IMG/VR virus record: IMGVR_UViG_3300008111_001458
Strand: one strand, 5' to 3'
Source of the DNA: a virus
Lineage: Duplodnaviria > Heunggongvirae > Uroviricota > Caudoviricetes
DNA length: 41,951 nt
Numbering within the stretch: the first letter of the stretch is position 1; each line of letters starts with the position of its first letter. The notes below the pieces were generated by a model. The model saw only the letters and a program-made list of their open reading frames with translations. It did no database searches and had not been told where the DNA came from. Position numbers and translations under genes: made by a program. Shown here piece after piece: positions 2,478 to 16,207 of this stretch.

Positions 2478-3341
2478 ATGGATTTAGTAACTATTGCGTG
2501 TGAGCAAGATTTTGATGTAATGCGACTACAGGCCGAAAGCATCAGTAAGTTTCTACAGCCATGTACACATTGGGTTACTATTAACGAACGTTTTCCAGAT
2601 AAGCAACGCTGGAAGGACATGTTAGAGCCATACTACACAAAACATAAACTTGTTTTATTATTTCCTAAATGGTACGAATACTTGCATGTCCCTGATGGAT
2701 TTGAGCGCCACCAAGTTTATAAACTTAAAATGGTCAACTATATAAAAGACGAAGAGTTTTTATGTTTAGACCCTAAAGACTTTTTTGTTAAACCTTGCAG
2801 TACGACTGACTGGGCAGGTGTACTAGGTTGCGGTTGGATCGCTTATGATTCTAACTGGGAACCAGTTATTAAACGATTTGCTGAATACTTTAATGTAGAC
2901 CCTGTAAGAGAAAAACAGTTTGCGTCAGAATGTCCGTTTGTATGGCGTACTGAACTAGTTAAAAGTTTAGGTGATATTGAAAAGTTTTGTAGCTGGTATT
3001 TAAAAGGTAAGTGTGGTGAACTAGTATTGTATTCATATCTTGCTAATCATCTAGTTGACGAGTCATTTGTTCCTCGTAAATTTGCTAGAATATTCTGGAG
3101 GGGAGAAACAGTTAACGAAACTGTTTTACAAGATACCTATAATACAGATTACGTTAAAGTTATGGGGTTCCACAGATATGTACGCTATGCCGCAACTGAC
3201 GAACAACTTGCGGCTATTAATGTTTGGCTTAACCAACTAGGATTTAAAACACCTGTTGTAAGATTTAAACCATCTTGGTTTGAACGTTTTAGAAACAGCC
3301 GTTATTACAAAACGCTCAACTCTGGAAATACATCTCGATAA
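2478..3341 (+). CDS. Hypothetical protein, possibly glycosyltransferase-like
   Basis: ATG at 2478 directly after the deacetylase stop; LDPKDFF acidic motif; family not certain. Confidence 0.55.
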   Translation: MDLVTIACEQDFDVMRLQAESISKFLQPCTHWVTINERFPDKQRWKDMLEPYYTKHKLVLLFPKWYEYLHVPDGFERHQVYKLKMVNYIKDEEFLCLDPKDFFVKPCSTTDWAGVLGCGWIAYDSNWEPVIKRFAEYFNVDPVREKQFASECPFVWRTELVKSLGDIEKFCSWYLKGKCGELVLYSYLANHLVDESFVPRKFARIFWRGETVNETVLQDTYNTDYVKVMGFHRYVRYAATDEQLAAINVWLNQLGFKTPVVRFKPSWFERFRNSRYYKTLNSGNTSR

Positions 3342-4603
3342 TTAGTTCCACGCTGTGTATCTGTGGTTTCTAAATAATCTAGTAGTGTAGGAATTTTATC
3401 AGTCCAGTCTGCTGAATTCATGTATTTGATTAATCCCATCCAACGTTGAGCACCATATGGGTCTGTAGCAAAGTCTTTGTAGCCCATATGTTTAGCACAA
3501 AAATATTCAATGCGTTTTGCTACTTGATCTTTAATTTCTTTTGGTAGAACACGTACATTTAAGTAATCGGGCAAGTAGACTAAGTGTGTTCCAATAATGC
3601 CAGCGCCATGCGGTGGCAAATTAATCTTTTTAAAGTTCTTGCTAATCTTCCAATTGGCTAATTCTGGTATGCTTGATACGTTAAGCAACTGTACAGCACA
3701 AGCAATATTAATAATAATGTTATCGGGTGTGTCGTCTAATCTTTCTAAGTTAGTAACAACATTATTCCATTTACTAGGATAACGAATATAATCGTTACGT
3801 TGGCCAAAAGCATCTACACTAAAGTTAAATTTAACCTGCTTAAAATAATTCCACAACTCAAATAACTTCTCTGGCAGTTCCATGCCGTTGCTGTTATAAC
3901 GTAGTACACAGTTCTTAGCATTACCTGTTTCAACCATAAACTCTAATATTTTATAGTGTTCTGGTATAAGCAACGGTTCACCACCTGCAAAGTACAACTC
4001 TTTGATATTGTGTGATTGCGTTCTTAAACTTGATAAGAATTCACCTTTTTGATACCAAGTGTAGTCAAAGTCAATGTTCCATCCTTGATCTTGTTTAAGT
4101 TCTATTGTTTTGTATTTTGGATACTGTGCTTTCCATTCTTTAATCCAACTACTTGAATCGTGTGGACTACACATAATACACTTTAACTGGCACATATTCC
4201 CCAGGCGTAAATCAAAGTAAGGAATGTCTACAGGCAAAGTTCCGTCGGGGGTTGTTCTAGACACAACGGCATCAAGGTTTAATCGTTCTTTCCACACAAC
4301 AGTTTCCCATTGGCGTTTACTAACAATACCGTTGAGTTCTTCTTGATAACATTTGGTACAACTGTATGGTTGTTCTCCATTAAGCATTTGTAGCCGTGTC
4401 TGCTTCATAAAACTGCTGTTCCACACTTGCTCAATTGAGTGTGATTGTAAGTTCATGTTTACGCCATTATCTTTAACAAGGCCTGATTCTTTGTCTGCGG
4501 TACCCGCACCAGATGCGTTAGCAGTGCAACATAAACGGACATCGCCGTTAGGTCTAGTAGCTAAATGGATCCATGGTAATGGACAAAATGTTTTATTGAA
4601 CAA
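3305..4603 (-). CDS. Radical SAM protein with N-terminal twitch/SPASM-like domain
   Basis: CPLPW...LCC...CTKC, then CQLKCIMC and FAGGEP. Confidence 0.9.
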   Translation of the reverse strand: MFNKTFCPLPWIHLATRPNGDVRLCCTANASGAGTADKESGLVKDNGVNMNLQSHSIEQVWNSSFMKQTRLQMLNGEQPYSCTKCYQEELNGIVSKRQWETVVWKERLNLDAVVSRTTPDGTLPVDIPYFDLRLGNMCQLKCIMCSPHDSSSWIKEWKAQYPKYKTIELKQDQGWNIDFDYTWYQKGEFLSSLRTQSHNIKELYFAGGEPLLIPEHYKILEFMVETGNAKNCVLRYNSNGMELPEKLFELWNYFKQVKFNFSVDAFGQRNDYIRYPSKWNNVVTNLERLDDTPDNIIINIACAVQLLNVSSIPELANWKISKNFKKINLPPHGAGIIGTHLVYLPDYLNVRVLPKEIKDQVAKRIEYFCAKHMGYKDFATDPYGAQRWMGLIKYMNSADWTDKIPTLLDYLETTDTQRGTNYRDVFPELSVL

Positions 4604-5648
4604 TTTGGTCTCTTGGTTTTATAAAATCAGTATTTGTGCCACAGGTTCTAGCACAAGTCACTAGTTTATTGATAGACCAAAAATCATCCCATACAGTTTG
4701 ATACGCATGGCTTTCTATGATCTCTTTGATTGATCTTTCAAAAGTATTAACAGATCCTAATTTCTTTACCAATTCATCGTGTTGCTCTCTCATCTTTTGC
4801 CTTACTGCTAACGCCTCATCTGGATTAATATAACTGTACGGAACGCTAGCTAACCAACAACATGGAAAAAGATCTCCATATGCATCAATGTAAACTTCTT
4901 TATCATTTTTAGACTTGCAACTAATGATAGATTTGTCAACTATTTGTTGATAATTATCAATTATCTTTTTATCTATAAATTTTAAAGGTACATCTGATGC
5001 TGGTTCTATAAAATGGGTTATTTTCTTTTGTTTATTCATTACATTTATTTTAGGTTCTAATATGAATCTACTAGAATTTTTAAGAGTAAAATATTTAAAA
5101 CCTAATTGTTGAGATAGTAATCTTGCTTCGTCAACTTGATGTTCATTGTGTTTAAATTTTATAAAAACCCATTCGGCAATACCCCCGGCTTCAATAAATG
5201 TTTTGGCATTTTCTAAAACAGTTTCAAACTTGGTTCCTATTCTGTATAATTGATGAGTATCGAATAGACCATCTAATGCAAACACTACTCTATGATTTTT
5301 TGGTAGGACATTCGCTAAAGTTTTCCACCAATCAACAGATCTAGCACTACCGTTAGTGTGGATTACAATTCCGGTATTTGGCGAATGATTATTGCTATAT
5401 TCACACATTTTTATTAGATCGTTATTAAGAATTGGATCTCCAAAGTTGCCACAAAAATAATAACTACTAAGTTGTTGCAATACTTCTAAAGTTATTACTT
5501 TTTTAAAATCATCAATAGTCCAATTTTTTATTTTGATCAATGGATTGTCTATTCCTCCATTTATATTTCTATTACACATAGGGCAACTAGCTTGACAATT
5601 GTTTGTAATTTCAAGATGAATTTGTTTTAAATTTGAAAAATTAAACAT
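4593..5648 (-). CDS. Radical SAM/SPASM-like protein
   Basis: EITNNCQASCPMC, GNFGDP, C-terminal GDLFPCC...CARTC. Confidence 0.9.
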   Translation of the reverse strand: MFNFSNLKQIHLEITNNCQASCPMCNRNINGGIDNPLIKIKNWTIDDFKKVITLEVLQQLSSYYFCGNFGDPILNNDLIKMCEYSNNHSPNTGIVIHTNGSARSVDWWKTLANVLPKNHRVVFALDGLFDTHQLYRIGTKFETVLENAKTFIEAGGIAEWVFIKFKHNEHQVDEARLLSQQLGFKYFTLKNSSRFILEPKINVMNKQKKITHFIEPASDVPLKFIDKKIIDNYQQIVDKSIISCKSKNDKEVYIDAYGDLFPCCWLASVPYSYINPDEALAVRQKMREQHDELVKKLGSVNTFERSIKEIIESHAYQTVWDDFWSINKLVTCARTCGTNTDFIKPRDQIVQ

Positions 5649-6627
5649 TTTTTTCTTTTGGTATTTTGCTGTCTGCAGAACTTACACAAGTTTCTGTTAT
5701 GCACGAAACAGGATTTCCAAATAAACTAAATCCCTGTTCTAAAGTTCCCAATCTTAAATCTCTGCAACTGTATCCTCTTTTTACTTCATTACCTCGTATA
5801 ATGACACTTTGGTATCCTGAATTACATTTCCAATCTTTAAATTTGTTAAACCCAAATGCATTAAATCTTTCTGCTTGATCAAACAGATATTCTCTGCCTT
5901 CTTGATCGTACAGAGCAATCTGATATAGTTGTTCTCCCTCTACTGTTTGTGGAAATCCTGTTTGCATTAGATTGATCATTTCCTCAGTGTAACCACTTAC
6001 TACAAAACTAGCAGTAGGATCGCTCTGAGGTTTTAAAGTTACATTAATGCCTTTCTTATGAAACCTCTCGCAGCGTTCATATAATTCGTAAAACTTTTCA
6101 GGTACCATTACTTGATTGACAGTAACATAAACATATTCGTTCATTAATTTTAAGCATTTGTTAACGAAATCTGATTCTTTAGCATGTTCTACATGGTAAC
6201 TGGCTGTAACACTCTTTCTCTGCAACATACTAACAGCATTGGCCCAACTTTTCCACCAATTGATGCTCGGGCTGAGATTGGTAGTCATGTGTACACTTTG
6301 GTACGGTGTAGTTGGACCATCGTCAAGATGTTGTATTAATTGCAACAGATCTTTGTAGGCTGTGGGTTCTCCGCCACTGAAACTCCAATGAAAACGATTA
6401 AATCCATTATTACGGGCTTGACTTTTTATTTGATCGATTGTATTCTTGTAAACTTCAATGGTTTGGTGATCGGGTTTGTCACTGTGTGCATAGGGCCAAC
6501 AATAGGAACAACTGTAGTTACAAAATCTTCCTAGGATCCAACTCACAGAAAACAGATTAGTGTCTAACATTGTACGTTGACCAAATCTTACAACTTGCTC
6601 AAAAGGTATTTTTTGAAATTCTGACAT
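5641..6627 (-). CDS. Radical SAM protein with C-terminal Cys cluster
   Basis: CNYSCSYC, FSGGEP, C-terminal CNSG...YSC...CITETC; similar to 898..1815. Confidence 0.9.
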   Translation of the reverse strand: MSEFQKIPFEQVVRFGQRTMLDTNLFSVSWILGRFCNYSCSYCWPYAHSDKPDHQTIEVYKNTIDQIKSQARNNGFNRFHWSFSGGEPTAYKDLLQLIQHLDDGPTTPYQSVHMTTNLSPSINWWKSWANAVSMLQRKSVTASYHVEHAKESDFVNKCLKLMNEYVYVTVNQVMVPEKFYELYERCERFHKKGINVTLKPQSDPTASFVVSGYTEEMINLMQTGFPQTVEGEQLYQIALYDQEGREYLFDQAERFNAFGFNKFKDWKCNSGYQSVIIRGNEVKRGYSCRDLRLGTLEQGFSLFGNPVSCITETCVSSADSKIPKEKNV

Positions 6628-6721
6628 ATATAAATAAAGTTAGAATATTTAGTGAGTTATTTTTTTGCTAGTGAGATTTTAGAATTTGGCGAAATTGCCA
6701 CATTTGAGTGCAAAATTTTTG

Positions 6722-6750
6722 TTGACAGCTAAATAAACATACCATATAAT
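6722..6750 (+). promoter_or_regulatory. Sigma70 consensus promoter heading the tRNA array
   Basis: TTGACA(6722-6727)-17 bp-TATAAT(6745-6750), a perfect consensus. Confidence 0.9.
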
Positions 6751-6794
6751 TATTAAACGCTGCATGGTGCAGCCTAAAAAGGATATAGAAGCAA

Positions 6795-6935
6795 ATGAAA
6801 TTAACGTCATTACATGGACAATTTAGATCGATAGCCAAACAGGCAGGCTTTATGCCCACCTATTGGTCATGCGAGACAATTAGCCTATCTAATGATCGTG
6901 TGCCAGGTAAGGGGTCCGTGAAGATCACGAGTTAA
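6795..6935 (+). CDS. 46-aa leader peptide (putative attenuator leader) MKLTSLHGQFRSIAKQAGFMPTYWSCETISLSNDRVPGKGSVKITS
   Basis: AAGGA at 6779-6783, ATG 6795, TAA 6933-6935; lies between promoter and terminator. Confidence 0.7.
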   Translation: MKLTSLHGQFRSIAKQAGFMPTYWSCETISLSNDRVPGKGSVKITS

Positions 6936-6960
6936 CGAAAAAGTAAACTCAAACTTCAAA

Positions 6961-6996
6961 AGGACCCCAGGATTAAAAACCCTGGGGTTTTTGTTT
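6961..6996 (+). terminator. Intrinsic terminator (attenuator) with competing antiterminator strand at 6911-6917
   Basis: ACCCCAGG(6964-6971)/CCTGGGGT(6981-6988) stem followed by TTTTTGTTT; GGGGTCC(6911-6917) is complementary to GGACCCC(6962-6968). Confidence 0.85.
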
Positions 6997-7010
6997 GTAG
7001 CAAGGATAAA

Positions 7011-7169
7011 ATGAAATTTGATATTGAAGACAGTTATAAAGTAGAGCACAGTGAAGGTTTTGTTTTAACTGAAGACCAGTTTAAAAAACTAATTGAGTCT
7101 AAAGTTGAAAGAAACAAAGCACTTTACTCGCTGGACAAAGTGCGGGAACGTAGGGAAAACCTTTCGTAG
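7011..7169 (+). CDS. Small hypothetical protein (52 aa)
   Basis: AAGGA RBS, MKFDIEDSYK...RENLS, TAG stop. Confidence 0.55.
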   Translation: MKFDIEDSYKVEHSEGFVLTEDQFKKLIESKVERNKALYSLDKVRERRENLS

Positions 7170-7286
7170 AACGCGAAGTGTAATAGGGAACGCGACCCTG
7201 CAGGGCACTATAAACATCTTGCTACTAATGAGGGCGGCCTTGGGGATGAGAAGTCTGTGGCGATAACGCAGATGTGTAAAAACCAA

Positions 7287-7356
7287 GTGTAGTTAAGTAT
7301 TCACCATTCGCCCTACGACGGCGTCTAAAAGCATAGCGGAGAATACTTAACTACAC
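7287..7356 (+). repeat. 16-bp perfect inverted repeat enclosing a 38-nt GC-richer loop
   Basis: GTGTAGTTAAGTATTC(7287-7302)/GAATACTTAACTACAC(7341-7356). Confidence 0.85.
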
Positions 7357-7409
7357 ACTCTCCTAATCATTTCAAAAAAAGGAATGAATGGTTACAATTA
7401 GGAGAGTGT
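7355..7409 (+). repeat. 13-bp perfect inverted repeat directly upstream of tRNA-Tyr
   Basis: ACACTCTCCTAAT(7355-7367)/ATTAGGAGAGTGT(7397-7409). Confidence 0.85.
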
Positions 7410-7419
7410 TATTTGTTAT

Positions 7420-7507
7420 GGATGGGTGTGCCGAATGGTTGAAGGCAACGGACTGTAAATCCGCCACATAAGAAACGCTGTAGGTTCGAATCCTACTCCA
7501 TCCACCA
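7420..7507 (+). tRNA. tRNA-Tyr(GTA)
   Basis: Cloverleaf, ctGTAaa loop, long variable arm, encoded CCA. Confidence 0.95.
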
Positions 7508-7511
7508 CTGT

Positions 7512-7586
7512 GTATCCCTGGTGTTAACGGCAGCATGACGGTCTCCAAAACCGCTGGTGGGGGTTCGAATCCCTCGGGGTATGCCA
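7512..7586 (+). tRNA. tRNA-Trp(CCA)
   Basis: ctCCAaa loop, TTCGAAT T-loop, CCA end. Confidence 0.9.
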
Positions 7587-7640
7587 TTGAAACACGGCCT
7601 TTGTCTCTAGGTCATAGATCTACACAAAGGTTCTTTTTAT

Positions 7641-7715
7641 GCACGGTTCGTCTATCGGTTAGGACACCCGCCTTTCACGCAGGTAAGAGGGGTTCGATTC
7701 CCCTACCGTGTACCA
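7641..7715 (+). tRNA. tRNA-Glu(TTC)
   Basis: ctTTCac loop, CCA end. Confidence 0.95.
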
Positions 7716-7721
7716 TATAAT

Positions 7722-7799
7722 GTGAGGATGGCAGAGAGGCCCAATGCAAGAGTCTGCAAAACTCTAAAACCGTCGGTTCAAATCCGACTCCTCACTCCA
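7722..7799 (+). tRNA. tRNA-Cys(GCA)
   Basis: ctGCAaa loop, U73 discriminator, CCA end. Confidence 0.95.
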
Positions 7800-7828
7800 T
7801 TGACATTTATATTTTTTTTCTATATTAT
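7800..7828 (+). promoter_or_regulatory. Sigma70-type promoter abutting the tRNA-Cys 3' end
   Basis: TTGACA(7800-7805)-17-TATTAT(7823-7828). Confidence 0.65.
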
Positions 7829-7833
7829 AAGGT

Positions 7834-8295
7834 ATGGGACAAAGATTTTTAGAAAGCCTTAAAATTGGTGAAACTTGGGAAACTAAGATGGAAGATTGGA
7901 TGCAAAGACATTTTGCAAAAACCAATTGGACTATTCACGACACTAGGGATATTCATAGAGACAGCGACGACGATCAGATTCCTGATTACGTTTTACACAA
8001 TGTTCAATCAGACAAAGCCTGTTTTATTGATGCTAAAAAAAGAAATGTCTATAATATCCGAGGCGTTAATTATTTTGGATTTGATGAAAAATTTTACACC
8101 AGCTATACAAACATAGCTCGTAAATGTAACACAAAAGTTTATATAGGATTCAATGATCCTATATATGATTCAACTCATGTTTATATTCTTGATGTGGATC
8201 ACCCTCCATCATTAAGACTCTACTTCAATAATGAGTATGGTAAAGGATACGCCTATCGTTGGCGTGTTGAAGATTTAACAAAATACAAAATCTAG
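7834..8295 (+). CDS. Putative PD-(D/E)xK nuclease-fold protein
   Basis: IPDYVL...FIDAKKR motif spacing; inserted between tRNA-Cys and tRNA-Ser. Confidence 0.6.
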   Translation: MGQRFLESLKIGETWETKMEDWMQRHFAKTNWTIHDTRDIHRDSDDDQIPDYVLHNVQSDKACFIDAKKRNVYNIRGVNYFGFDEKFYTSYTNIARKCNTKVYIGFNDPIYDSTHVYILDVDHPPSLRLYFNNEYGKGYAYRWRVEDLTKYKI

Positions 8296-8384
8296 GAAGT
8301 GTGGCAGAGTCCGGTTTATTGCACCTGTCTTGAAAACAGACGATCAGAAATGGTCCGTGAGTTCAAATCTCACCGCTTCCGCCA
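8295..8384 (+). tRNA. tRNA-Ser(TGA)
   Basis: ctTGAaa loop, long variable arm, GCCA end. Confidence 0.95.
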
Positions 8385-8388
8385 ATAA

Positions 8389-8463
8389 GGTCTCAAAGTG
8401 TTTATGGACGCACACAAGCCTGTCACGCTTGAAGAAGGGGATCGTTACCCCTTGGGACCGCCA
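8389..8463 (+). tRNA. tRNA-Asp(GTC)
   Basis: ctGTCac loop, GCCA end; atypical T-loop ATCGTTA. Confidence 0.9.
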
Positions 8464-8529
8464 CAATAAGGAGAACTCAAAATGGGGCGATCGCAGTTAT
8501 TATTATGTTAGTAGTGTTAATATTGTATA

Positions 8530-8558
8530 TTGACAAGAATCTTAAATGAAAGTAAATT
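8530..8558 (+). promoter_or_regulatory. Sigma70-type internal promoter
   Basis: TTGACA(8530-8535)-17-TAAATT(8553-8558). Confidence 0.55.
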
Positions 8559-8662
8559 ATGTTCACAAAGGAGAACGACATGAAACGAGGTAAACAGTAG
8601 TGTCGCCTGGAATCCCGTATGGTCCAGGTTGGCACAGTAAATCAACTTAATACGGACTATAT

Positions 8663-8737
8663 GGGAGTATAGCTCAGCGGTAGAGCAGCGGACTTTTAAT
8701 CCGTTGGTCCAGGGTTCAAATCCCTGTGCTCCTACCA
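8663..8737 (+). tRNA. tRNA-Lys(TTT)
   Basis: ctTTTaa loop, CCA end. Confidence 0.95.
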
Positions 8738-8814
8738 TATAAAAACATATTAACCACAGCCTGCACACATAGAAGCAGGGTGCATAGCACATTGTTGTTC
8801 GTGTGTTTCTATAT

Positions 8815-8889
8815 GGTAATGTAGCATAACGGTAGTGCAGCACCTTCATACGGTGTTCAGTGAAAGTTCAACTCTTTCCATTACCACCA
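8815..8889 (+). tRNA. tRNA with CAT anticodon (elongator Met, or Ile2)
   Basis: ttCATac loop, paired 1:72, CCA end. Confidence 0.85.
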
Positions 8890-8890
8890 T

Positions 8891-8965
8891 GCCTGTTTAG
8901 CTCAGTGGTAGAGCATCGTCTTGATAAGGCGAGGGTCCGTGGATCGTTCCCACGAACAGGCACCA
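8891..8965 (+). tRNA. tRNA-Ile(GAT)
   Basis: ttGATaa loop, CCA end; atypical T-loop ATCGTTC. Confidence 0.9.
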
Positions 8966-8968
8966 AGT

Positions 8969-9189
8969 TTGTAGCGTCAGCAAGAGAAAAACACATTGTT
9001 GAGAGGTTCGAAACTTAATACAGTGTAAAGCAGATGTGGGTTCAACTCCCAGCGGATCGGAAGATCCGCGCAGATTGGTTGCCGCTGGTTAAGTATCTCA
9101 AGTGACATGTCCTGGAAAACCTCCGCATAAGGAAGTCCGGCTCTGTATGCGTAAACACTAGTGATAAACCTGAGGACACTAGGCTACAA
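8969..9189 (+). ncRNA. Candidate ~220-nt structured ncRNA between tRNA-Ile and tRNA-Arg
   Basis: Terminal stem TTGTAGC/GCTACAA, T-loop hairpin, GNRA hairpin and several 6-7 bp helices. Confidence 0.6.
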
Positions 9190-9195
9190 TTTAAT

Positions 9196-9272
9196 CGGTC
9201 CTTACGTCAACTGGAGAGACTACCTGTCTTCGAAACAGGAGGTTGTGGGTTCAAATCCTGCAGGACCGGCCA
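9196..9272 (+). tRNA. tRNA-Arg(TCG)
   Basis: ctTCGaa loop, CCA end. Confidence 0.9.
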
Positions 9273-9277
9273 GTTAT

Positions 9278-9353
9278 TGGGGATTCGCCAAGTTGGTAAG
9301 GCACCGGATTTTGATTCCGGCATTCGGTGGTTCGAGTCCATCATCCCCAGCCA
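9278..9353 (+). tRNA. tRNA-Gln(TTG)
   Basis: ttTTGat loop, U1-A72, GCCA end. Confidence 0.95.
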
Positions 9354-9355
9354 AT

Positions 9356-9431
9356 GGTGTCCTTAATGTAGTGGCCTGCATACTAGTCTGTGAAACTGGA
9401 AGTACGAGATCGATACTCGTAGGACACCCCA
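9356..9431 (+). tRNA. tRNA-His(GTG)
   Basis: ctGTGaa loop, encoded G-1 and C73; atypical T-loop ATCGATA. Confidence 0.9.
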
Positions 9432-9433
9432 AT

Positions 9434-9509
9434 GCTGCTTTAGCTGATGTGGTCATAGCGGCGGTCTGAAGAGCCGTTGAACTAGGTTCGATTCCTAGAG
9501 GCAGCACCA
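9434..9509 (+). tRNA. tRNA-Phe(GAA)
   Basis: ctGAAga loop, CCA end. Confidence 0.95.
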
Positions 9510-9512
9510 TAT

Positions 9513-9589
9513 GCGGATGTGATGGAATTGGTATACATATCAGACTTAAAATCTGAGTCCTGAGGGTTCGAGTCCCTCCATCCGTACCA
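9513..9589 (+). tRNA. tRNA-Leu(TAA), short variable region
   Basis: ctTAAaa loop, Leu-type D-loop, A73, CCA. Confidence 0.9.
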
Positions 9590-9605
9590 GAACAAGGAGA
9601 TTAAC

Positions 9606-9791
9606 ATGAAAACCTTATTATTCAAAAATCGTATGAACAGTGAACAATTTTATTGTAATGATCCTAAGGTTGTTCAAACTATAGATGGAGTGGAATATCT
9701 TGTTGTTCATCGACCAGGACAAGAAAGACAATTCCTTATGCGTAAAGATGCATTAGAAAAAATAGGAAAAGTTGTTGACAAGACTAAGTAA
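9606..9791 (+). CDS. Hypothetical protein (61 aa)
   Basis: AAGGAGA RBS; fills the gap between tRNAs. Confidence 0.75.
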   Translation: MKTLLFKNRMNSEQFYCNDPKVVQTIDGVEYLVVHRPGQERQFLMRKDALEKIGKVVDKTK

Positions 9792-9814
9792 TTCTGCAAT
9801 AATTAAATTTTTAT

Positions 9815-9891
9815 GCCCCGGTGACGGAATTGGTATACGTGTTGGTCTTAGAAGCCAAATTTTAGGAGTTCGAGTCTCCTCTGGGGCACCA
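9815..9891 (+). tRNA. tRNA-Leu(TAG), short variable region
   Basis: ctTAGaa loop, Leu-type D-loop, A73, CCA. Confidence 0.9.
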
Positions 9892-9900
9892 AGGAATATT

Positions 9901-10113
9901 ATGGAAGAAGATATTGACTTTTTTGAATTTGCAGAATTAATGCAGAAATATGAACAAGCTCTTGGTGGAATAGAATTTTCTATAGAACAAAAACCAGGAC
10001 CTCAGGAAGGCGATGAAGTTTGGCAACTCGACATTGATGGACAAACTGTGTTTTTTCAAAACTTTGATGAAGTTAAAGTTTACTTAGATAAATTAGTTGT
10101 AGAAAGAAATTAA
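9901..10113 (+). CDS. Acidic hypothetical protein (70 aa)
   Basis: AAGGA RBS before ATG 9901; the longer ORF call overlaps tRNA-Leu. Confidence 0.7.
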   Translation: MEEDIDFFEFAELMQKYEQALGGIEFSIEQKPGPQEGDEVWQLDIDGQTVFFQNFDEVKVYLDKLVVERN

Positions 10114-10114
10114 T

Positions 10115-10189
10115 GCATCGTTAGTTCAGCGGTAGAACGTCGCCCTTACAAGGCGAATGTCAGTGGTTCGACTCCATTACGATGCACCA
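10115..10189 (+). tRNA. tRNA-Val(TAC)
   Basis: ctTACaa loop, CCA end. Confidence 0.95.
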
Positions 10190-10198
10190 GCGTATCAG

Positions 10199-10298
10199 GC
10201 CTCTGTAGCTTAATTGGTAAAGACGGGAGCTTATATCTCCCCAAAGCACCGGCCAGATAAGCCGGCGTGTGCAGGTTCGAGTCCTGCCAGAGGCACCA
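10199..10298 (+). tRNA. tRNA-Ile(TAT) with ~29-nt extra arm
   Basis: GCCTCTG/CAGAGGC acceptor, GGGAG-ctTATat-CTCCC, TTCGAGT T-loop, ACCA. Confidence 0.8.
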
Positions 10299-10303
10299 GA
10301 ATT

Positions 10304-10391
10304 GGAGAGTTGGCCGAGTGGTTAAGGCAGCGGTTTGCTAAACCGTCGTTGCGAAAGTGGCGCATAGGTTCGAATCCTATACTCTCCGCCA
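10304..10391 (+). tRNA. tRNA-Ser(GCT)
   Basis: ttGCTaa loop, long variable arm, GCCA. Confidence 0.95.
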
Positions 10392-10411
10392 AGTTTATAA
10401 AAGGAAAAATA

Positions 10412-10603
10412 ATGTTAAAAGCAGGTCCAAACTTTAAGTTAAGTAAGCAGTCCAAAAGATTGATAGCAACTATTATTGATAATCACGAACGTGGCGCATT
10501 TAAACGTAGTGCTATTCAAGCAGAATTAGCAGCAGCTATTCAGCCCAAGAGAGAAAAAGGTAAACGAAACGAAGGATCTAGGGATAATGGTAGCAAAGAA
10601 TGA
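10412..10603 (+). CDS. Small basic hypothetical protein (63 aa)
   Basis: AAGGA RBS before ATG 10412 (MLKAGPNFKLSK). Confidence 0.7.
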   Translation: MLKAGPNFKLSKQSKRLIATIIDNHERGAFKRSAIQAELAAAIQPKREKGKRNEGSRDNGSKE

Positions 10604-10835
10604 TGTCACTGGGGATTCCATTCAGACTAAGTCAGCATCAAAATCTTACAGAGATAACTACGATAATATTTTTAGAAAGAACACTATGACACCTAAATTG
10701 CAAGAAAACGATAATGAAGTTGGTAAATGTGGCTGCGGTCGTAGTCCAACTGGAAAGTGCATCGGATGGCATTCATTGTCCGAATCAGAGTATCAAAAAC
10801 GTTTAGCAGAATCTAAAGCAGTACAACAATCCTAA
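10587..10835 (+). CDS. Hypothetical protein with CDGSH-like Cys/His motif
   Basis: CGCGRSPTGKCIGWH resembles the CxCxxS...CDGSH 2Fe-2S ligand pattern. Confidence 0.6.
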   Translation: MVAKNDVTGDSIQTKSASKSYRDNYDNIFRKNTMTPKLQENDNEVGKCGCGRSPTGKCIGWHSLSESEYQKRLAESKAVQQS

Positions 10836-10845
10836 GGAAACTATC

Positions 10846-11049
10846 GTGAGAGAACAATTACTCAAAGCTGCAAAAGCACACTTCAAAAGTCATGTTGAAA
10901 AGCATCGCATGAATGTAGAAGTAATGTTAAATAATCCAATTGCTATACATGATCACACAGATTGGATGACTGCAATGGAAAATGAAATAGCACACATTGC
11001 TGAATATGAAGATAAATTAGAAGTGTTAGATAAACATTTCGGTAAATGA
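10846..11049 (+). CDS. Hypothetical protein (67 aa)
   Basis: AAGGA RBS, GTG start. Confidence 0.75.
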   Translation: MREQLLKAAKAHFKSHVEKHRMNVEVMLNNPIAIHDHTDWMTAMENEIAHIAEYEDKLEVLDKHFGK

Positions 11050-11054
11050 AATTA

Positions 11055-11130
11055 GGGCCAGTAGCTCATCTGGGAGAGCAGGACCTTTGCAAGGTCAAGG
11101 TGGCGGGTTCAAGTCCTGTCTGGTCCACCA
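11055..11130 (+). tRNA. tRNA-Ala(TGC)
   Basis: ttTGCaa loop, G3:U70, ACCA. Confidence 0.95.
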
Positions 11131-11150
11131 AATAACAAAAAGGAAACATT

Positions 11151-11279
11151 ATGGCAGTTAAAGGTCAAGCAGGTACTCATAAAAGAGTTCACAAAAATAC
11201 TTGTCAAAATGGTAGTAAGACATCTACTGCGAATAAGAGTAATAAAACTCGCAAAGCATATAGAGGACAAGGACGATAA
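11151..11279 (+). CDS. Small basic protein (42 aa) ending YRGQGR
   Basis: AGGA RBS; MAVKGQAGTHKRVHKN...KAYRGQGR; below ORF-track cutoff. Confidence 0.7.
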   Translation: MAVKGQAGTHKRVHKNTCQNGSKTSTANKSNKTRKAYRGQGR

Positions 11280-11281
11280 TT

Positions 11282-11443
11282 ATGGGCGAGAAAGGTGATC
11301 CAATGAAAACCAAGACAGGAAAAACACGCCTTGGTCCTTTAAATCTTGCGCAACTCAATGACATGTTAGAGAAATCTAGCAGACCAAAAGATAAAGCAAA
11401 GATTCGTAATCGTATTAAACAATTAGAATCGAGCAGTAAGTAA
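11282..11443 (+). CDS. Small basic protein (53 aa)
   Basis: MGEKGDPMKTKTGKTRLGPLN...; starts 2 nt after the previous stop. Confidence 0.6.
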   Translation: MGEKGDPMKTKTGKTRLGPLNLAQLNDMLEKSSRPKDKAKIRNRIKQLESSSK

Positions 11444-11448
11444 AAAAC

Positions 11449-11524
11449 GCTGGAGTAGCTCAGTTGGTAGAGCTCCTGATTTGTAATCAGGCGGTCGAGG
11501 GTTCGAATCCTTTCTCCAGCACCA
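11449..11524 (+). tRNA. tRNA-Thr(TGT)
   Basis: ttTGTaa loop, CCA end. Confidence 0.95.
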
Positions 11525-11531
11525 ATTGTCT

Positions 11532-12230
11532 ATGAAGTTATTTGCAAATGGATGCAGCCACACATGGGGCGGCGGAATCTTAGAAGAACAAGGTTTTGAT
11601 GGAGTATTATGGCCTAGTTTTTTTAATAAAGAAGAACAAGATAAAAAAAATTATCGGCTGTCTTCTGTATGGCCATCTCATTTATCAAATTTATTAAATT
11701 GTACAGAAACAGTTAATTTTGCAATTGGGTGTGGATCAAATCAAAGAATAGTTAGAACAACGTTTGATTTTTTTATAGATAAAATAAAAAATAACGAAAA
11801 TTTATCAGACTGGGTTGCAGTTATACAATGGACTGAACCATCAAGATATGAAATTTATGATGAAAAATTTGATAGATTTAATTTAATAAAATTAGATGTT
11901 GTAATTCCTAATGTTAAACAAAATAGATACGAGTACTTACAAAATAGATTTTACGAATCTGATGAACTGTTTATTTCAGAATTTTTAGTTCATCTTAATT
12001 CTCTAGCATCGTTTTTTGACAAATGGAATATAAATTATAGATTTACTAGAATTAATCCTAGTCCGCCTATTCCAGACTATTATAAAAATAATTTAAAATG
12101 GGTTGATGAATTTAGTTCAATGTTAGATCATCATAAAATATTTCAATATAAATGCGGCCATCCAAACATAGAAGGTCATAAATTAATAGCTAAAGAACTT
12201 TACAATAGTTTTAAAAAAGATTATAATTAA
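11532..12230 (+). CDS. SGNH/GDSL-like hydrolase family protein
   Basis: ANGCSHTWG block I and HPNIEGH block V; very AT-rich. Confidence 0.6.
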   Translation: MKLFANGCSHTWGGGILEEQGFDGVLWPSFFNKEEQDKKNYRLSSVWPSHLSNLLNCTETVNFAIGCGSNQRIVRTTFDFFIDKIKNNENLSDWVAVIQWTEPSRYEIYDEKFDRFNLIKLDVVIPNVKQNRYEYLQNRFYESDELFISEFLVHLNSLASFFDKWNINYRFTRINPSPPIPDYYKNNLKWVDEFSSMLDHHKIFQYKCGHPNIEGHKLIAKELYNSFKKDYN

Positions 12231-12236
12231 GAATAT

Positions 12237-12311
<75 letters not shown>

Positions 12312-12319
12312 AATATCTA

Positions 12320-12418
12320 AGGCGGACCTGTAACCATATTCCGCCTCCGCTGACGCGAAAACAGGATGGGCTGCGCTCACGGGGTTTGACAATCTTCCTG
12401 ACACAAAAAAGATTGTCA
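12320..12418 (+). ncRNA. Candidate pseudoknotted small RNA
   Basis: AGGCGGA/TCCGCCT stem with loop CCTGT pairing to ACAGG; 10-bp TGACAATCTT/AAGATTGTCA stem. Confidence 0.5.
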
Positions 12419-12425
12419 CTTTTTC

Positions 12426-12452
12426 AAAAAGACTTGACTAAAGTCTTTTTTT
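12426..12452 (+). terminator. Terminator-like hairpin overlapping the next -35 box
   Basis: AAAAAGACTT/AAGTCTTTTT inverted repeat followed by a T-run. Confidence 0.55.
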
Positions 12453-12462
12453 ATCATATACT
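12434..12462 (+). promoter_or_regulatory. Sigma70-type promoter upstream of a non-coding element
   Basis: TTGACT(12434-12439)-17-TATACT(12457-12462). Confidence 0.7.
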
Positions 12463-12468
12463 AGTTTT

Positions 12469-12721
12469 GTTGTAACAGAAATGTTGCAACCGGTGAAGTA
12501 AAAGGTAGATGAGAATAGACATATTGTGGCTTCATGCCGCAATGACTTAATCTGGCAAACACTCTTGAAAAGTGTCGTGCTTGAGTGAACCGATTCCAAA
12601 TATCTTTTATTAGACTGTCAATTGCTGATCGGAAATATTCAGGCCTCTGTAGCCTGTTTGTTGCACGTTGTAGAAGGAAATGCCTCATACGCTATCCTGT
12701 CTGTCAATTGTCCGGTCTATT
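12469..12721 (+). ncRNA. Candidate ~250-nt structured ncRNA
   Basis: 5' GAAA-capped 9-bp hairpin, AATAGAC/GTCTATT closing stem, several internal hairpins; lies between two promoters. Confidence 0.55.
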
Positions 12722-12723
12722 AC

Positions 12724-12752
12724 TTGACCTTTTACCGAACCGTCATTATAAT
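12724..12752 (+). promoter_or_regulatory. Sigma70 promoter for the omega-like gene
   Basis: TTGACC(12724-12729)-17-TATAAT(12747-12752), then AAGGAG RBS. Confidence 0.8.
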
Positions 12753-12764
12753 AAGGAGCGAGCA

Positions 12765-13010
12765 ATGGCAAAAGTAACATCAGAAAAAGCAGTAGAACAA
12801 ATTGGAAACAGATTTAATTTAGTGCTAGCGGCATCACAACGTGCAAGAGAATTAAAAAATGGTTCTATGCAACGTGTAGAAGGAAAGGATGCCTCAACAA
12901 CTGTAACTGCACTAAGAGAAATTGAACAAGGCAAATATACTTGGAAAGATTATTTGAGCAAAGTTAAAGGCAAAAAAAGGAAAGAAACAGATGAATATCA
13001 CACTACGTAA
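12765..13010 (+). CDS. rpoZ: RNA polymerase omega subunit homologue
   Basis: [30 protein letters not shown]...[12 protein letters not shown] matches proteobacterial omega (MARVT..AVEKIGNRFDLVL.A..RARQ...TTVIALREIEEG); RBS supports ATG 12765. Confidence 0.9.
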
Positions 13011-13563
13011 AGCAAGTGCTGTACAAAACAGCATCAATGAAGCAATCAAACATATCAAGATTGAAACTAATCTTGAACTCAACGAGTTTCAAAATGTAGA
13101 AGCAGAGATTGCTGCTGCACAAAAAAAACTAGAAGAAGCTGATCTTCGTCGTGAAAAGTTGTTGGTTGTACTCTACAACATTCGCGGCCTAGTTGGTCAA
13201 GCTAATGCCGAAAGCGGCATTGATCTTAAGTTGGCTCGTGCAGCCTATGTTGACAAGAGAATTAGTCAACTTGATGCTGTTGCTAACAGCAATGCAGTAA
13301 CCAGCCTTGACGTACTTAAAGGTAAACTTGAGAAAATCAAAAGTCTCAAAGACGAAGCACGTAGTCGCATTTATGGTTACGGCGACACTGTAACAACTTC
13401 TGTACTGACACAGGAAAAGATTGAAGCAATTCAATCCGAGATTAAAAATCTTAAAAAACAAAAACAAAAGCTCAATGACGAAATTCTTGAGCTTAATATT
13501 AAAACTGAGATTCCACTCAGTGACGAAGCAGCTCAAGTCCTTCAAATAGAAGGTTTGATCTAA
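12991..13563 (+). CDS. Coiled-coil hypothetical protein
   Basis: 190-aa ORF, helical heptad-rich. Confidence 0.8.
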
Positions 13564-13564
13564 C

Positions 13565-13761
13565 AGACCCCTGTTACACTTTTCAGGAAGAAAGTGCGCC
13601 ATTACCAAGCGATAGAAGGTACGGTGTTTAGGATCTACCGCAAGGCTCTCTTTAGGAGCGACTTGAGAAATCCTAGGTACGAACTGTAACGGCGCCAGAA
13701 GCAGAATACAGTGGACAGGGTAACAACTCAGTCTAGGGCGGACAGGGAACCGTGGCTAGAC
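13565..13761 (+). ncRNA. Candidate ~195-nt structured ncRNA
   Basis: GC-enriched non-coding stretch with many 5-7 bp complementary pairs. Confidence 0.5.
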
Positions 13762-13930
13762 ACTTTTATTGATAGCACTCTGCAGGTATCGTTTGTGGAC
13801 GCACAGACTCATGAAGAATAGGGCCATCTTTCTCTTCTGATAAAACTGCGGGCAATGGCTTATGAGGAGAATCGAACTCCACTCAGAAATTTGCTCAGTC
13901 CTATAAGGCTTGAGTACTATCAATAAAAGT
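13762..13930 (+). ncRNA. Candidate ~170-nt structured RNA closed by a 19-bp stem
   Basis: ACTTTTATTGATAGCACTC/GAGTACTATCAATAAAAGT (1 mismatch) plus internal helices. Confidence 0.55.
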
Positions 13931-13934
13931 TTGA

Positions 13935-14010
13935 CGCAGAGTATGGAAGTGGTCATCCGTCCGGTCTCATAAGCCGGGAATCGCAGGTTCGAATCCTGCC
14001 TCTGCAACCA
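13935..14010 (+). tRNA. tRNA-fMet(CAT), initiator-like
   Basis: C1:A72 mismatch, ctCATaa loop, ACCA. Confidence 0.9.
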
Positions 14011-14015
14011 ATTAC

Positions 14016-14094
14016 CCGGGTGTAGCTTAGTCTGGCTTAAAGCGCCTGCTTTGGGAGCAGGAGATCGTGAGTTCGAATCCCACTTCCCGGACCA
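14016..14094 (+). tRNA. tRNA-Pro(TGG)
   Basis: ttTGGga loop, ACCA. Confidence 0.9.
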
Positions 14095-14110
14095 TATTAA
14101 GGAGTATGAC

Positions 14111-14263
14111 ATGCCAATGTATGAAACAACTGTAAGAACATCCGGTGGTGAGGAAAAGAAAAGAATCTATGCAGATACACCGCAAGAGGCTAAAAAACTT
14201 TTTGAACAACTGTATGGTGGTCCTAGAGCAGTACCTTACATTCCTCATGTGGTACCAAGTTAA
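14111..14263 (+). CDS. Hypothetical protein (50 aa)
   Basis: AAGGAG RBS; MPMYETTVRTSGG; the longer ORF call overlaps tRNA-Pro. Confidence 0.7.
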   Translation: MPMYETTVRTSGGEEKKRIYADTPQEAKKLFEQLYGGPRAVPYIPHVVPS

Positions 14264-14313
14264 TTTCGCCCTGACACATGGCGTACAATGAGATAAGTAG
14301 TGTGTCATTTAAT

Positions 14314-14389
14314 GCGGGTGTAGCTCAGTTGGTAGAGCGTAACTTTGCCAAAGTTAAGGTCGACAGTTCGAGACTGTTCACCCGCTCCA
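14314..14389 (+). tRNA. tRNA-Gly(GCC)
   Basis: ttGCCaa loop, U73, CCA. Confidence 0.95.
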
Positions 14390-14400
14390 AAGGATATTAA

Positions 14401-14796
14401 ATGTTAGAATGTTTAATTGTAGGTGATAGTATTGCTGTTGGTACTGCTCAGTTCAGACCAGAATGTGTAAGTTTGAGTAAAGGCGGTATTAACAGTCATG
14501 ACTGGAATAAAAAGAATCGTGACAATCCCGTAGCAGCTAAAACTGTAATAATCAGTCTTGGATCTAACGATCATTCTGGCGTTCGCACACTCTGGGAATT
14601 ACAACAGTTAAGAAACAGAGTAAATGCAGATAAAGTATATTGGATAATGCCAGCTATCAAACCGCATATACAAAAGATGGTCGAACTAGTTGCAAAAGAT
14701 TATAATGATGTTATAATTCCAATTACTAAATTACAAAAAGATGGTGTTCACCCCACCGGAGCAGGTTATAAAGAGATTGCAGCAAAAACAAAATGA
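14401..14796 (+). CDS. SGNH/GDSL hydrolase family protein
   Basis: VGDSIAVG, SLGSND, DGVHPTGAGY blocks. Confidence 0.85.
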   Translation: MLECLIVGDSIAVGTAQFRPECVSLSKGGINSHDWNKKNRDNPVAAKTVIISLGSNDHSGVRTLWELQQLRNRVNADKVYWIMPAIKPHIQKMVELVAKDYNDVIIPITKLQKDGVHPTGAGYKEIAAKTK

Positions 14797-14814
14797 CTGT
14801 ATAATGTTTTTCAT

Positions 14815-14888
14815 GCGGGATTAGTTTAATGGTAAAACGAAAGCCTTCCAAGCTCTAGTCATCGGTTCGATTCCGATATTCCGCTCCA
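14815..14888 (+). tRNA. tRNA-Gly(TCC)
   Basis: ctTCCaa loop, U73, CCA. Confidence 0.95.
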
Positions 14889-14893
14889 AGTTT

Positions 14894-14968
14894 CTGGCTG
14901 TAGTTCAATGGATAGAACAAGGGTCTTCTAAACCCTAAATCTAGGTTCGATTCCTAGCAGCCGGGCCA
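14894..14968 (+). tRNA. tRNA-Arg(TCT)
   Basis: ctTCTaa loop, GCCA. Confidence 0.95.
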
Positions 14969-14975
14969 TTTACTA

Positions 14976-15051
14976 GCTGATGTGGCACAGTAGGTAGCGC
15001 ACATTCTTGGTAAGAATGAGGTCAGCGGTTCGATCCCGCTCATCAGCACCA
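14976..15051 (+). tRNA. tRNA-Thr(GGT)
   Basis: ttGGTaa loop, ACCA. Confidence 0.95.
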
Positions 15052-15064
15052 AATAAATAACAGT

Positions 15065-15307
15065 ATGAAAGAGCTACTGGAAAAGCTGCCGCAGATATTA
15101 GGAATGATGCCGCAAATCATTTCCTTTTTAAAATATATTCCTATCCTCATGCTATTAGCAGGTTTAGGTTACGGCGTTTATTATTTTGTTCAGAATAAAA
15201 AAGATCCTTACAAGTGTGTAAACAATCATGTATTTGAACAGTTGCGTATGGATTCAGATGTTTATGTATTTAAAGGCGGCACTTGTATAGATGCCAACGA
15301 TTTATAA
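15065..15307 (+). CDS. Small membrane protein
   Basis: Hydrophobic segment ILMLLAGLGYGVYYFV; ATAAATA late-type box at 15053-15059. Confidence 0.75.
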   Translation: MKELLEKLPQILGMMPQIISFLKYIPILMLLAGLGYGVYYFVQNKKDPYKCVNNHVFEQLRMDSDVYVFKGGTCIDANDL

Positions 15308-16081
15308 TTATTCACAAGTAGCCCAAACGGTATTAGTCCACTTTTTATAAAGATATGAACCTTTAGGAACCCAACAATTTCCAAGTTCTGGGTCACGCTC
15401 GATTCTTCCTTGTATGATTACCAAGAACATATAAGAAACTAAAAATATACAGGTTAAGATAGATATACCAATAACTGCTTGATGTGTCATTTTATCTTTC
15501 CTGGCTTTTTTTCTGCGCTGCTCTATTTCGTATCTGCGCATTTGATTGGTAATAGCAACTCTTTGTTCCTTTCCAACCGTTTGCATCATTTCTTCAACAT
15601 CACTCCACAATGCACCTAATTCTGGAGGAGACTGATACACCATGATTTCTCGAAGTTCAGAAGACATGTGTTCCAATTGTTTTTTCATTAGAACACGTTG
15701 TAGAGCACGTTTACCAAGACTATCTTCGCCAGTATAAACTTCTGTTTTGTTACGGCGTTCTTCTTCTTCAAATATTGCTAGACATTTGTAATAGTTGTCA
15801 AAATAGGCCCCTAGATGTTGACCAATTTCTTGATAGATATTAGTCGTTTCTCCACCTTTTTTGTTTAATTCAACTACTCGATTACGCTCGGTTACATATT
15901 GATTTCTTTCTGCAACTGTAGGCGTACGATCTTTGTATCTGTTATGGAATTGGTCATCCAGATCCTTGAGCACGTCTTTAACGTCGCCCGCGGCACCCTT
16001 TATATCTTTATAGAGTTTACACCCTTCTTTTACTAGCTTAACTGCTCCGTTAGCTAGTGCAAATAGCGTTACTGGATCCAT
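15308..16081 (-). CDS. Hypothetical protein with C-terminal TM segment
   Basis: 257-aa ORF, AGGAG RBS, ATAAATA box (complement of 16111-16117). Confidence 0.8.
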   Translation of the reverse strand: MDPVTLFALANGAVKLVKEGCKLYKDIKGAAGDVKDVLKDLDDQFHNRYKDRTPTVAERNQYVTERNRVVELNKKGGETTNIYQEIGQHLGAYFDNYYKCLAIFEEEERRNKTEVYTGEDSLGKRALQRVLMKKQLEHMSSELREIMVYQSPPELGALWSDVEEMMQTVGKEQRVAITNQMRRYEIEQRRKKARKDKMTHQAVIGISILTCIFLVSYMFLVIIQGRIERDPELGNCWVPKGSYLYKKWTNTVWATCE

Positions 16082-16118
16082 TCATTAGTTCGCTCCTAAT
16101 GGTTCAATGCTATTTATT

Positions 16119-16200: not shown

Positions 16201-16207
16201 ATTTTCC

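Follow-up and report, generated by a model that had tools for sequence, protein, structure and literature searches.

A leader open reading frame with all 20 amino acids in a probable transcription attenuator upstream of phage tRNA genes

We describe here a compact element at the head of a tRNA gene array in DNA of an uncultured lake phage, the IMG/VR record IMGVR_UViG_3300008111_001458 (41,951 nucleotides, Caudoviricetes), the whole of which is called the window below. The element consists of a consensus sigma-70 promoter, a leader open reading frame (ORF) of 46 codons in which every amino acid occurs, and an intrinsic terminator whose 5' arm can pair instead with the last codons of the leader. 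In our assessment, this is very likely a ribosome-mediated (leader-peptide) transcription attenuator heading the phage tRNA array, ON by default and turned OFF by fast and complete translation of the leader. Slow decoding of any amino acid would then probably let transcription run into the tRNA genes. Comparison with homologues supports the presence of the ORF, selection on its amino-acid completeness, both alternative helices with their covariation, the geometry of the unit, the promoter and the link to tRNA genes.

The leader unit is conserved upstream of phage tRNA genes

All the elements described in an earlier reading of this DNA (hereafter the original prediction), namely a perfect promoter, a 46-codon ORF and a terminator, were found at the positions given there (Table 1). 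The promoter matches the consensus at all 12 positions, and the leader ORF starts 45 nt past the -10 element. The terminator stem is formed by 6964-6971 with 6981-6988, extended by two G:U pairs (6962 and 6963 with 6990 and 6989, respectively) and followed by UUUUUGUUUGU. A consensus terminator scanner missed it, probably since the loop limit of that scanner is 8 nt while the loop here has 9.

Homologues were collected from IMG/VR with two baits, the exact 26-nt terminator core (44 contigs) and the codons for the N/Y-D-R-T-P-E motif of the leader (at least 120 further stretches). Duplicates, one chance match (L177) and one deletion derivative (L213) were removed. The analysed set contained 109 distinct sequences including the window, and IMG/VR thus holds at least 108 other homologues, on contigs that reach 383 kb. 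An ATG-initiated ORF of 35-53 codons (median 47) was present in all 109, ending 20-34 nt before the terminator arm and closed by UAA in 106. A promoter matching at 10 or more of the 12 consensus positions was present within 130 nt upstream of the leader ATG in every member and was perfect in 58. Only 6-10 nt separate the end of the -10 element from the ATG in 25 relatives, whose mRNA should therefore be nearly leaderless. The terminator was conserved across the homologues, with compensated variants outside the exact 26-nt core.

The unit was also constant in its surroundings. In all 104 loci with enough flanking DNA, a co-oriented tRNA gene followed the terminator, at a distance of 251-1015 nt (median 473). 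Within 6 kb downstream, 1513 tRNA genes were co-oriented with the leader and none was in the opposite orientation. In one subgroup the unit lies inside the tRNA array, behind tRNA-Met and tRNA-Leu genes.

No cultured relative is available. In the cultured-phage collection INPHARED, no match was found for the DNA of 6640-7420 or for the neighbouring radical-SAM protein, and the leader peptide gave chance matches only (E >= 0.3). A 17-mer scan of a collection of bacterial and archaeal genomes gave 61 matches, and the full element was present in only one of them; the others, none of which had the full signature, were taken as chance. The single copy, L273, lies on a 6.2-kb contig (JBBAKF010000113.1) binned with a Polynucleobacter metagenome-assembled genome, which is a weak hint at a host or else a binning artefact.

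Two further loci were recorded in passing. In the deletion derivative (L213:7870-7920), the NDRTPE codons are joined straight to the terminator 3' arm, with loss of the antiterminator and of the terminator 5' arm, as if recombination had occurred between G-rich repeats. Upstream of the leader in L118 (4099-4559, minus strand), ARAGORN called a permuted two-piece transfer-messenger RNA enclosing a tRNA-Arg(ccg) call, which may be a false positive.

Amino-acid completeness of the leader is under selection

The original prediction rested in part on the composition of the leader. We recounted it and obtained the same figures: the first 36 codons already include every amino acid, and there are 38 distinct codons among the 46. 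With the composition of the window, the chance that 36 codons contain all 20 amino acids is 0.24%, and for 46 codons it is 2%. A second complete small ORF exists in the window at 6184, antisense to a gene. The completeness of this one sequence is suggestive only, because of that 2% chance and of the other complete ORF; the comparative data make the case a strong one.

Complete leaders were found in 100 of the 109 members, the other nine containing 19 amino acids, and in 89 members all 20 were wholly 5' of the antiterminator strand. As background, 46 of 4232 other ATG-initiated ORFs of 35-53 codons in the related loci (1.09%) were complete. We then thinned the set by peptide identity and shuffled residues within alignment columns (5000 trials). 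Below 70% identity, 38 of 44 leaders were complete, against a shuffle mean of 8.3 and a maximum of 18; below 60%, 21 of 27 against a mean of 4.8; and below 50%, 13 of 18 against 2.6. The observed completeness was never reached by the shuffles in any of the three sets.

The rare residues tell how this is achieved. Cys was present in 103 of 106 peptides, with 1.09 copies per peptide, and its positions were scattered over 21 alignment columns, none of which held Cys in more than 22% of cases. His (1.10 copies over 14 columns), Tyr (1.21 over 15) and internal Met (1.34 over 19) behaved likewise, and Ala, at 2.67 copies per peptide on average, was not enriched. In these alignments, rare residues relocate and do not vanish. 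On comparative grounds, amino-acid completeness is evidently under selection.

The leader had also been proposed to match the phage tRNAs codon by codon, and here only the tally stood. Codons of the window leader address 26-27 of the 28 phage tRNAs; UUG, the codon of tRNA-Leu(CAA), does not occur, and neither of the phage Arg tRNAs (UCG and UCU) is a standard reader of CGU. Across the family, leaders cover 29.1 of the 32 NNY/NNR codon classes against 26.9 on synonymous resampling, with AUA, both Leu boxes and both Arg boxes over-represented. This excess is modest and is confounded by RNA-structure constraints and by relatedness, and tuning at the level of codons or isoacceptors was not relied on. 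The completeness seen by comparison is therefore one of amino acids, not of codons or isoacceptors.

U-ending codons were strongly avoided in the four-fold boxes of the leaders relative to long genes (ACU 0.07 against 0.38, GCU 0.04 against 0.32, CCU 0.03 against 0.40, GUU 0.07 against 0.39). Possible causes are constraints of RNA structure or GC content, or else a preference for codons that the phage U34 tRNAs read.

The peptide drifts while the ORF is kept

We looked at how the peptide itself evolves. The ratio of nonsynonymous to synonymous change (pN/pS) was 0.93 for the N-terminal part; past the conserved block it was 1.05. Only M1, the Trp and one Gly were invariant. The leader peptide matched no Pfam or PHROG family. 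The core of the antiterminator 5' strand (strand 2) encodes Gly-Ser in 48 leaders; another 58 have it in the +1 frame, as Arg-Val or Gly-Val, and three in the remaining frame. Since all three reading frames are used, this core is kept as RNA and not as peptide. In at least 18 lineages below 50% identity the ORF has been kept open with neutral-like amino-acid change, which suggests that translation itself matters and not its product. The comparison proposed in the original prediction, of ORF length and completeness against peptide drift upstream of tRNA arrays, thus came out in its favour. In the conserved middle of the leader, synonymous sites are unusually conserved (pS 0.18), partly as a result of selection by the search pattern.

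These data bear on a different reading, in which the leader encodes a functional micro-protein, e.g., a precursor peptide for adjacent enzymes, and the terminator is an ordinary gene end. Three radical-SAM genes in a row, two of which have SPASM domains, do lie directly upstream on the minus strand (3305-6627), divergent from the leader promoter, and the peptide has its invariant Trp and conserved middle. We nevertheless find this the least credible of the alternatives considered. The element was absent from the flanks (1.0 Mb in total) of all 80 retained relatives of the neighbouring radical-SAM gene, and it always adjoins tRNA genes instead. Moreover, pN/pS is close to 1, the C-terminus is read in different frames, and conservation of the middle extends to synonymous sites, an indication of constraint on the RNA. 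A precursor of a ribosomally synthesized and post-translationally modified peptide was rejected as the identity of the leader, there being neither co-location with a modifying enzyme nor a conserved core peptide.

Two mutually exclusive helices share the terminator 5' arm

All 109 sequences were cut at the end of the terminator 5' arm and folded, to mimic a transcript whose 3' arm has yet to be made. In all the truncated folds, 5-10 nt of the terminator 5' arm paired upstream in one extended three-tier hairpin. The outer tier joins GGG(G)UCC with GGACCC(C), the middle tier has a purine-rich 5' strand (GGAG:CUCC, GAAG:CUUC, UUGG:CCAA and others) and the apical tier holds the stop codon. This architecture was shared by all of twenty members with below 80% similarity in the region (z-scores of -3.6 to -7.0), their middle and apical sequences being different. 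The hairpin of the window (6905-6972) has a folding energy of -25.1 kcal/mol (z = -4.7), and none of 200 shuffles was as good. In most members the 5' strand of the middle stem (6919-6924 in the window) is also a Shine-Dalgarno-like purine run (GGAGG, GGAGA or GAAGA).

The exact complementarity of GGGGUCC (6911-6917) and GGACCCC (6962-6968) on which the original prediction was built was present, and the helix that it forms and that of the terminator exclude each other. Across the homologues, the pair 6911:6968 is G:C in 58, A:U in 42 and non-canonical in 6. In the terminator, where 6968 has 6984 as its partner, the pair is C:G in 62, U:G in 31 and U:A in 16. By these substitution patterns, antiterminator and terminator covary through the nucleotide that they share, as the original prediction had expected of its two pairings. 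Overall, 98.8% of the cells tabulated for the outer stem were paired, versus 29-65% when the partner was slid by 1-2 nt. Three members carry the compensated pairing GGGUUC:GAACCC, and L096 carries GGGGUUCCG:CGGGACCCC. RNAalifold on a MAFFT alignment recovered the outer stem and part of the middle stem; it missed the apical stem because loop lengths vary, and alignment-free folds were used instead.

A further candidate hairpin (6863-6906) pairs the region of the invariant Trp codon with the NDR(T/V)P codons. Most of its pairs were kept in 72-108 of the 109 members, the changes being one-sided (G:C/G:U), with no double compensation. It may be a pause or timing element, and pairing there would explain why synonymous sites of the NDR(T/V)P part are conserved.

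Two mutually exclusive, covarying helices are a hallmark of riboswitches as well, and the context is related to tRNA. An RNA-only switch, either a riboswitch or a T-box-like tRNA-binding element, would let a ligand or an uncharged tRNA select the hairpin and would leave the ORF irrelevant. This is very improbable in our view. Searching Rfam at E <= 1 over 6400-17000 gave only tRNAs and chance plastid matches, with no T-box, and no conserved core resembling a ligand pocket was found. Furthermore, every member has kept the ORF although its amino acids change in a neutral-like way, selection acts on completeness, and the stop codon is fixed in the apex of the hairpin.

Stabilities were compared next. 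The truncated transcripts (85 nt) had a median of -28 kcal/mol, the antiterminator hairpin ranged from -19 to -29 and the terminator was at about -17. Full-length naked RNA retained the antiterminator in 93 of the 109 members. In the minimum-free-energy fold of the window the terminator wins, via a CAUGGAC:GUCCGUG pairing that is not conserved in the homologues.

The preference of the full-length RNA can also be read in another way, with the 2:3 helix (the antiterminator) as the mature structure of a released RNA. The unit would then be an autonomous small transcription unit giving an abundant small or dual-function RNA, with a constitutive terminator and no downstream regulation. A perfect promoter and a strong terminator suit such a unit, and in 32 of the 104 loci a promoter matching at 11 or more of 12 positions lies after the terminator and before the first tRNA gene. 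We consider it improbable, if less so than the RNA-only switch. The 2:3 helix forms before the terminator 3' arm and would block termination unless removed. A small RNA gives no reason for the maintained ORF, for the geometry of the stop codon or for the selected completeness. In addition, the unit lies without exception directly upstream of co-oriented tRNA genes.

A model of attenuation by the leader ribosome and its reach

The stop codon lies 20-24 nt after the start of the antiterminator core in 100 of the 109 members and 20-34 nt before the terminator arm. A ribosome covers roughly 15 nt on either side of its P site. With this geometry, a terminating ribosome would keep the middle and apical stems apart and partly cover the outer one, with the terminator arm left free.

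Taking the leader as an attenuator, we propose the following sequence of events. The consensus promoter would drive a transcript of about 240 nt, with every amino acid represented in the leader ORF. The predicted three-tier antiterminator has the end of the ORF, stop codon included, in its 5' half and the terminator 5' arm in its 3' half. Being made first and more stable, the antiterminator would by default allow read-through into the small ORF, the structured RNA and the first tRNA genes. A ribosome passing fast through the roughly 39 upstream codons would melt the 5' strand of the antiterminator while the polymerase is still making the terminator, and transcription would end. If the ribosome is delayed anywhere in the first 36-39 codons, the antiterminator should stay intact. 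Because all amino acids are encoded upstream of the antiterminator strand, slow decoding of any of them should raise read-through, whether it comes from uncharged tRNA, tRNA cleavage or general damage to translation. Transcription of the tRNA genes would in this way be tied to the current decoding capacity of the cell. We infer the translation of the ORF, the kinetic competition and the nature of the stress that is sensed. That stalling leaves the antiterminator free was already part of the original prediction and is supported by the comparative tests, with one correction: the antiterminator is probably the default state and the ribosome is needed for OFF, because naked RNA favours the antiterminator in most members and no anti-antiterminator is conserved.

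Several observations weigh against this attenuator or limit its reach. Since the homologues were gathered by their terminator or their NDRTPE codons, the apparent conservation of those two motifs is inflated. If one counts strictly those codons at which a ribosome stalled with its A site would not touch the antiterminator core at all (median 36 codons), all 20 amino acids are present in only 20 of the 109 leaders and 19 in a further 63; the one lacking is usually Glu, the codon just before the antiterminator strand. The Shine-Dalgarno sequence of the window leader is weak (AAGGA, 11 nt upstream). A conserved 1:2 anti-antiterminator was sought and not found, strand 2 pairing upstream in 6 of the 109 full-length folds, and no recognisable polymerase pause element was found among the homologues. 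As neither was found, it may be that the ribosome does not catch up in time. A 1:2 pause hairpin is typical of the trp type and not of all attenuators. Finally, besides the promoters found before the first tRNA gene in about a third of the loci, further promoters lie inside the arrays, and because these internal promoters are strong, the switch is at most one input to tRNA expression.

The original prediction had the element controlling the tRNA array. The tRNA genes downstream are constant, as described above; sole control of the array did not hold up, the internal promoters leaving only the first block to the switch. Across the family, the median number of tRNA genes ahead of the next strong promoter is five. 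As judged from the promoter positions in the window, the switch would directly gate only the ORF at 7011-7169, the structured block and the genes of tRNA-Tyr, Trp, Glu and Cys.

Features of the window around the leader

The coordinates of the element and of its immediate surroundings are collected in Table 1.

Table 1. Elements of the putative attenuator and of the DNA that follows it in the window.
Feature	Position	Strand	Basis or remark
Sigma-70 promoter	-35 TTGACA 6722-6727, 17-nt spacer, -10 TATAAT 6745-6750	+	12/12 match
5'-terminal stem-loop, GCUGCA-UGG-UGCAGC	6759-6773	+	In minimum-free-energy and centroid folds
Leader ORF, 46 codons and UAA, all 20 amino acids	6795-6935	+	
Candidate internal hairpin, invariant Trp codon region paired with NDR(T/V)P codons	6863-6906	+	RNAalifold consensus
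Antiterminator 5' strand, within codons 39-43	6911-6923	+	Outer GGGGUCC 6911-6917, middle UGAAG 6919-6923
Antiterminator apical hairpin	6929-6950	+	Folding; holds stop codon UAA 6933-6935
Shared strand, pairing with antiterminator 5' strand	6954-6971	+	CUUCA 6954-6958 and GGACCCC 6962-6968
Shared strand, alternative as terminator 5' arm	6962-6971	+	
Intrinsic terminator, 8-10 bp stem, 9-nt loop, U-tract	6962-6996	+	
First gene past the terminator, 52-amino-acid ORF	7011-7169	+	Good Shine-Dalgarno
Conserved structured non-coding block between attenuator and first tRNA	7170-7409	+	blastn: 7176-7364 conserved in many relatives
tRNA-Tyr, Trp, Glu, Cys, before next strong promoter	7420-7799	+	ARAGORN
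Next promoter	7800-7828		11/12 match; directly after tRNA-Cys, with several more further along the array

Transcription would start near 6757, just before the 5'-terminal stem-loop, which may stabilise the leader RNA; that region (6759-6773) did not align across the homologues. The 52-amino-acid ORF past the terminator matched no Pfam or PHROG family. A similar N-terminus (…EVEHS…) occurs in some relatives, and in others the ORF is missing and the structured block follows the terminator directly. This block, often directly 3' of the terminator in relatives, includes a long hairpin at about 7291-7356, and Rfam gave no match for it at E <= 1. The first product regulated by the switch may be this block.

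The 28 tRNAs counted in the original prediction were recovered, 27 by ARAGORN and the 28th (10199-10295) by Rfam, and together they serve all 20 amino acids. Rfam scores the latter at 57.5 bits; ARAGORN misses it by default and, with -i, miscalls it as an intron-bearing tRNA-Trp. From its anticodon loop, CUUAUAU, we read it as a tRNA-Ile(UAU) with an unusually long extra arm. Relatives contain tRNA-Ile(tat) genes of 92 nt.

Homologues of the radical-SAM genes were found in 217 confirmed stretches of IMG/VR and in none of INPHARED. Elsewhere in the window, at 30632-31657, lies a gene for a UvdE-type UV-damage endonuclease (Pfam PF03851, E = 2e-37) in a phage context.

Comparison with known attenuators

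Classical attenuator leaders (trpL, hisL, leuL, thrL, pheL and the multivalent ilvGMEDA) contain runs of codons for one to three cognate amino acids and regulate biosynthetic enzymes. In them the outcome depends on where the ribosome stands, and they have a 1:2 pause or anti-antiterminator hairpin, so that an untranslated leader terminates. The phage element resembles them in its promoter, its short leader, its antiterminator and terminator sharing a strand, and the predicted outcome that fast, complete translation leads to termination. In contrast to them, its leader has each amino acid once or a few times and the genes regulated would be those of tRNAs. Moreover, unlike trp, it has no conserved 1:2 pairing, and its untranslated RNA should read through.

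T-box riboswitches also sense tRNA charging through a choice between terminator and antiterminator. Their specifier loop and T-box sequence bind the uncharged tRNA directly, no ORF being required. The sensing of charging and the terminator choice are thus alike, whereas the phage element has an ORF and no Rfam T-box match.

Among antibiotic-responsive, ribosome-mediated attenuators, we know of no requirement for amino-acid completeness in the leaders of vmlR or mef/mel. Expression of vmlR (PMC9226507) and of mef/mel (PMC4335068) is reported to be controlled by transcription attenuation in the leader region. The trigger of such attenuators is a drug and their targets are resistance genes, unlike in the phage element.

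The closest described system is the whiB7 (wblC) attenuator of mycobacteria and other Actinobacteria, in which stalling on an upstream ORF (uORF) favours an antiterminator and read-through (PMC10274678). In Mycobacterium smegmatis, 18 of 20 amino-acid starvations activate whiB7, the uORF containing 19 of the 20 amino acids, and Trp-less and His-less uORF variants show that sensing depends on the presence of the residue (PMC10274678). This is an experimental precedent for the logic proposed here, since the residues present set which starved amino acids are sensed. The content of the whiB7 uORF varies, that of Mycobacterium tuberculosis being without several amino acids; it is Ala-enriched, and completeness is not reported as conserved (PMC10274678). 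The two systems share the order of leader and terminator and the step from stalling to antitermination, and the resemblance is functional only: whiB7 controls the gene of a cellular transcription factor, whereas the phage element precedes tRNA genes and has no sequence in common with it. Unlike in whiB7, completeness itself is conserved in the phage element, within about 47 codons.

Phage tRNA arrays are now seen as tools against codon mismatch, loss of host tRNAs and tRNA-cleaving immunity (PMC11555353, PMC12409363). A full-text literature search found no paper linking phage tRNA genes to leader-peptide attenuation, in line with the original prediction that no phage attenuator of this kind had been described, and nothing on how expression of phage tRNA arrays is regulated. 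If the attenuator is real, it is a concrete feedback circuit with decoding capacity as input and tRNA transcription as output, and it adds tRNA genes to the amino-acid and resistance genes that are targets of leader-peptide attenuation. The selection involved is unusual in that the presence of every residue type is kept and not the sequence. Completeness is also a clean bioinformatic signature for finding further translation sensors, and a part as compact as about 240 nt could serve as a general reporter of translation stress.

We go further with less assurance, holding the odds to be only somewhat in favour: the element could be a 'pangram' leader of large freshwater phages, which tests decoding codon by codon and activates the phage tRNA genes when any single tRNA species fails. 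Such failure could come, e.g., from cleavage by host anticodon nucleases or from phage-induced loss of host tRNAs. It would be the first attenuator known to control tRNA genes and the first in which completeness itself is selected. Altogether, as far as comparative analysis can tell, the phage element differs from known attenuators in its target (tRNA genes), its host (a phage), its default state (ON) and its conserved amino-acid completeness.

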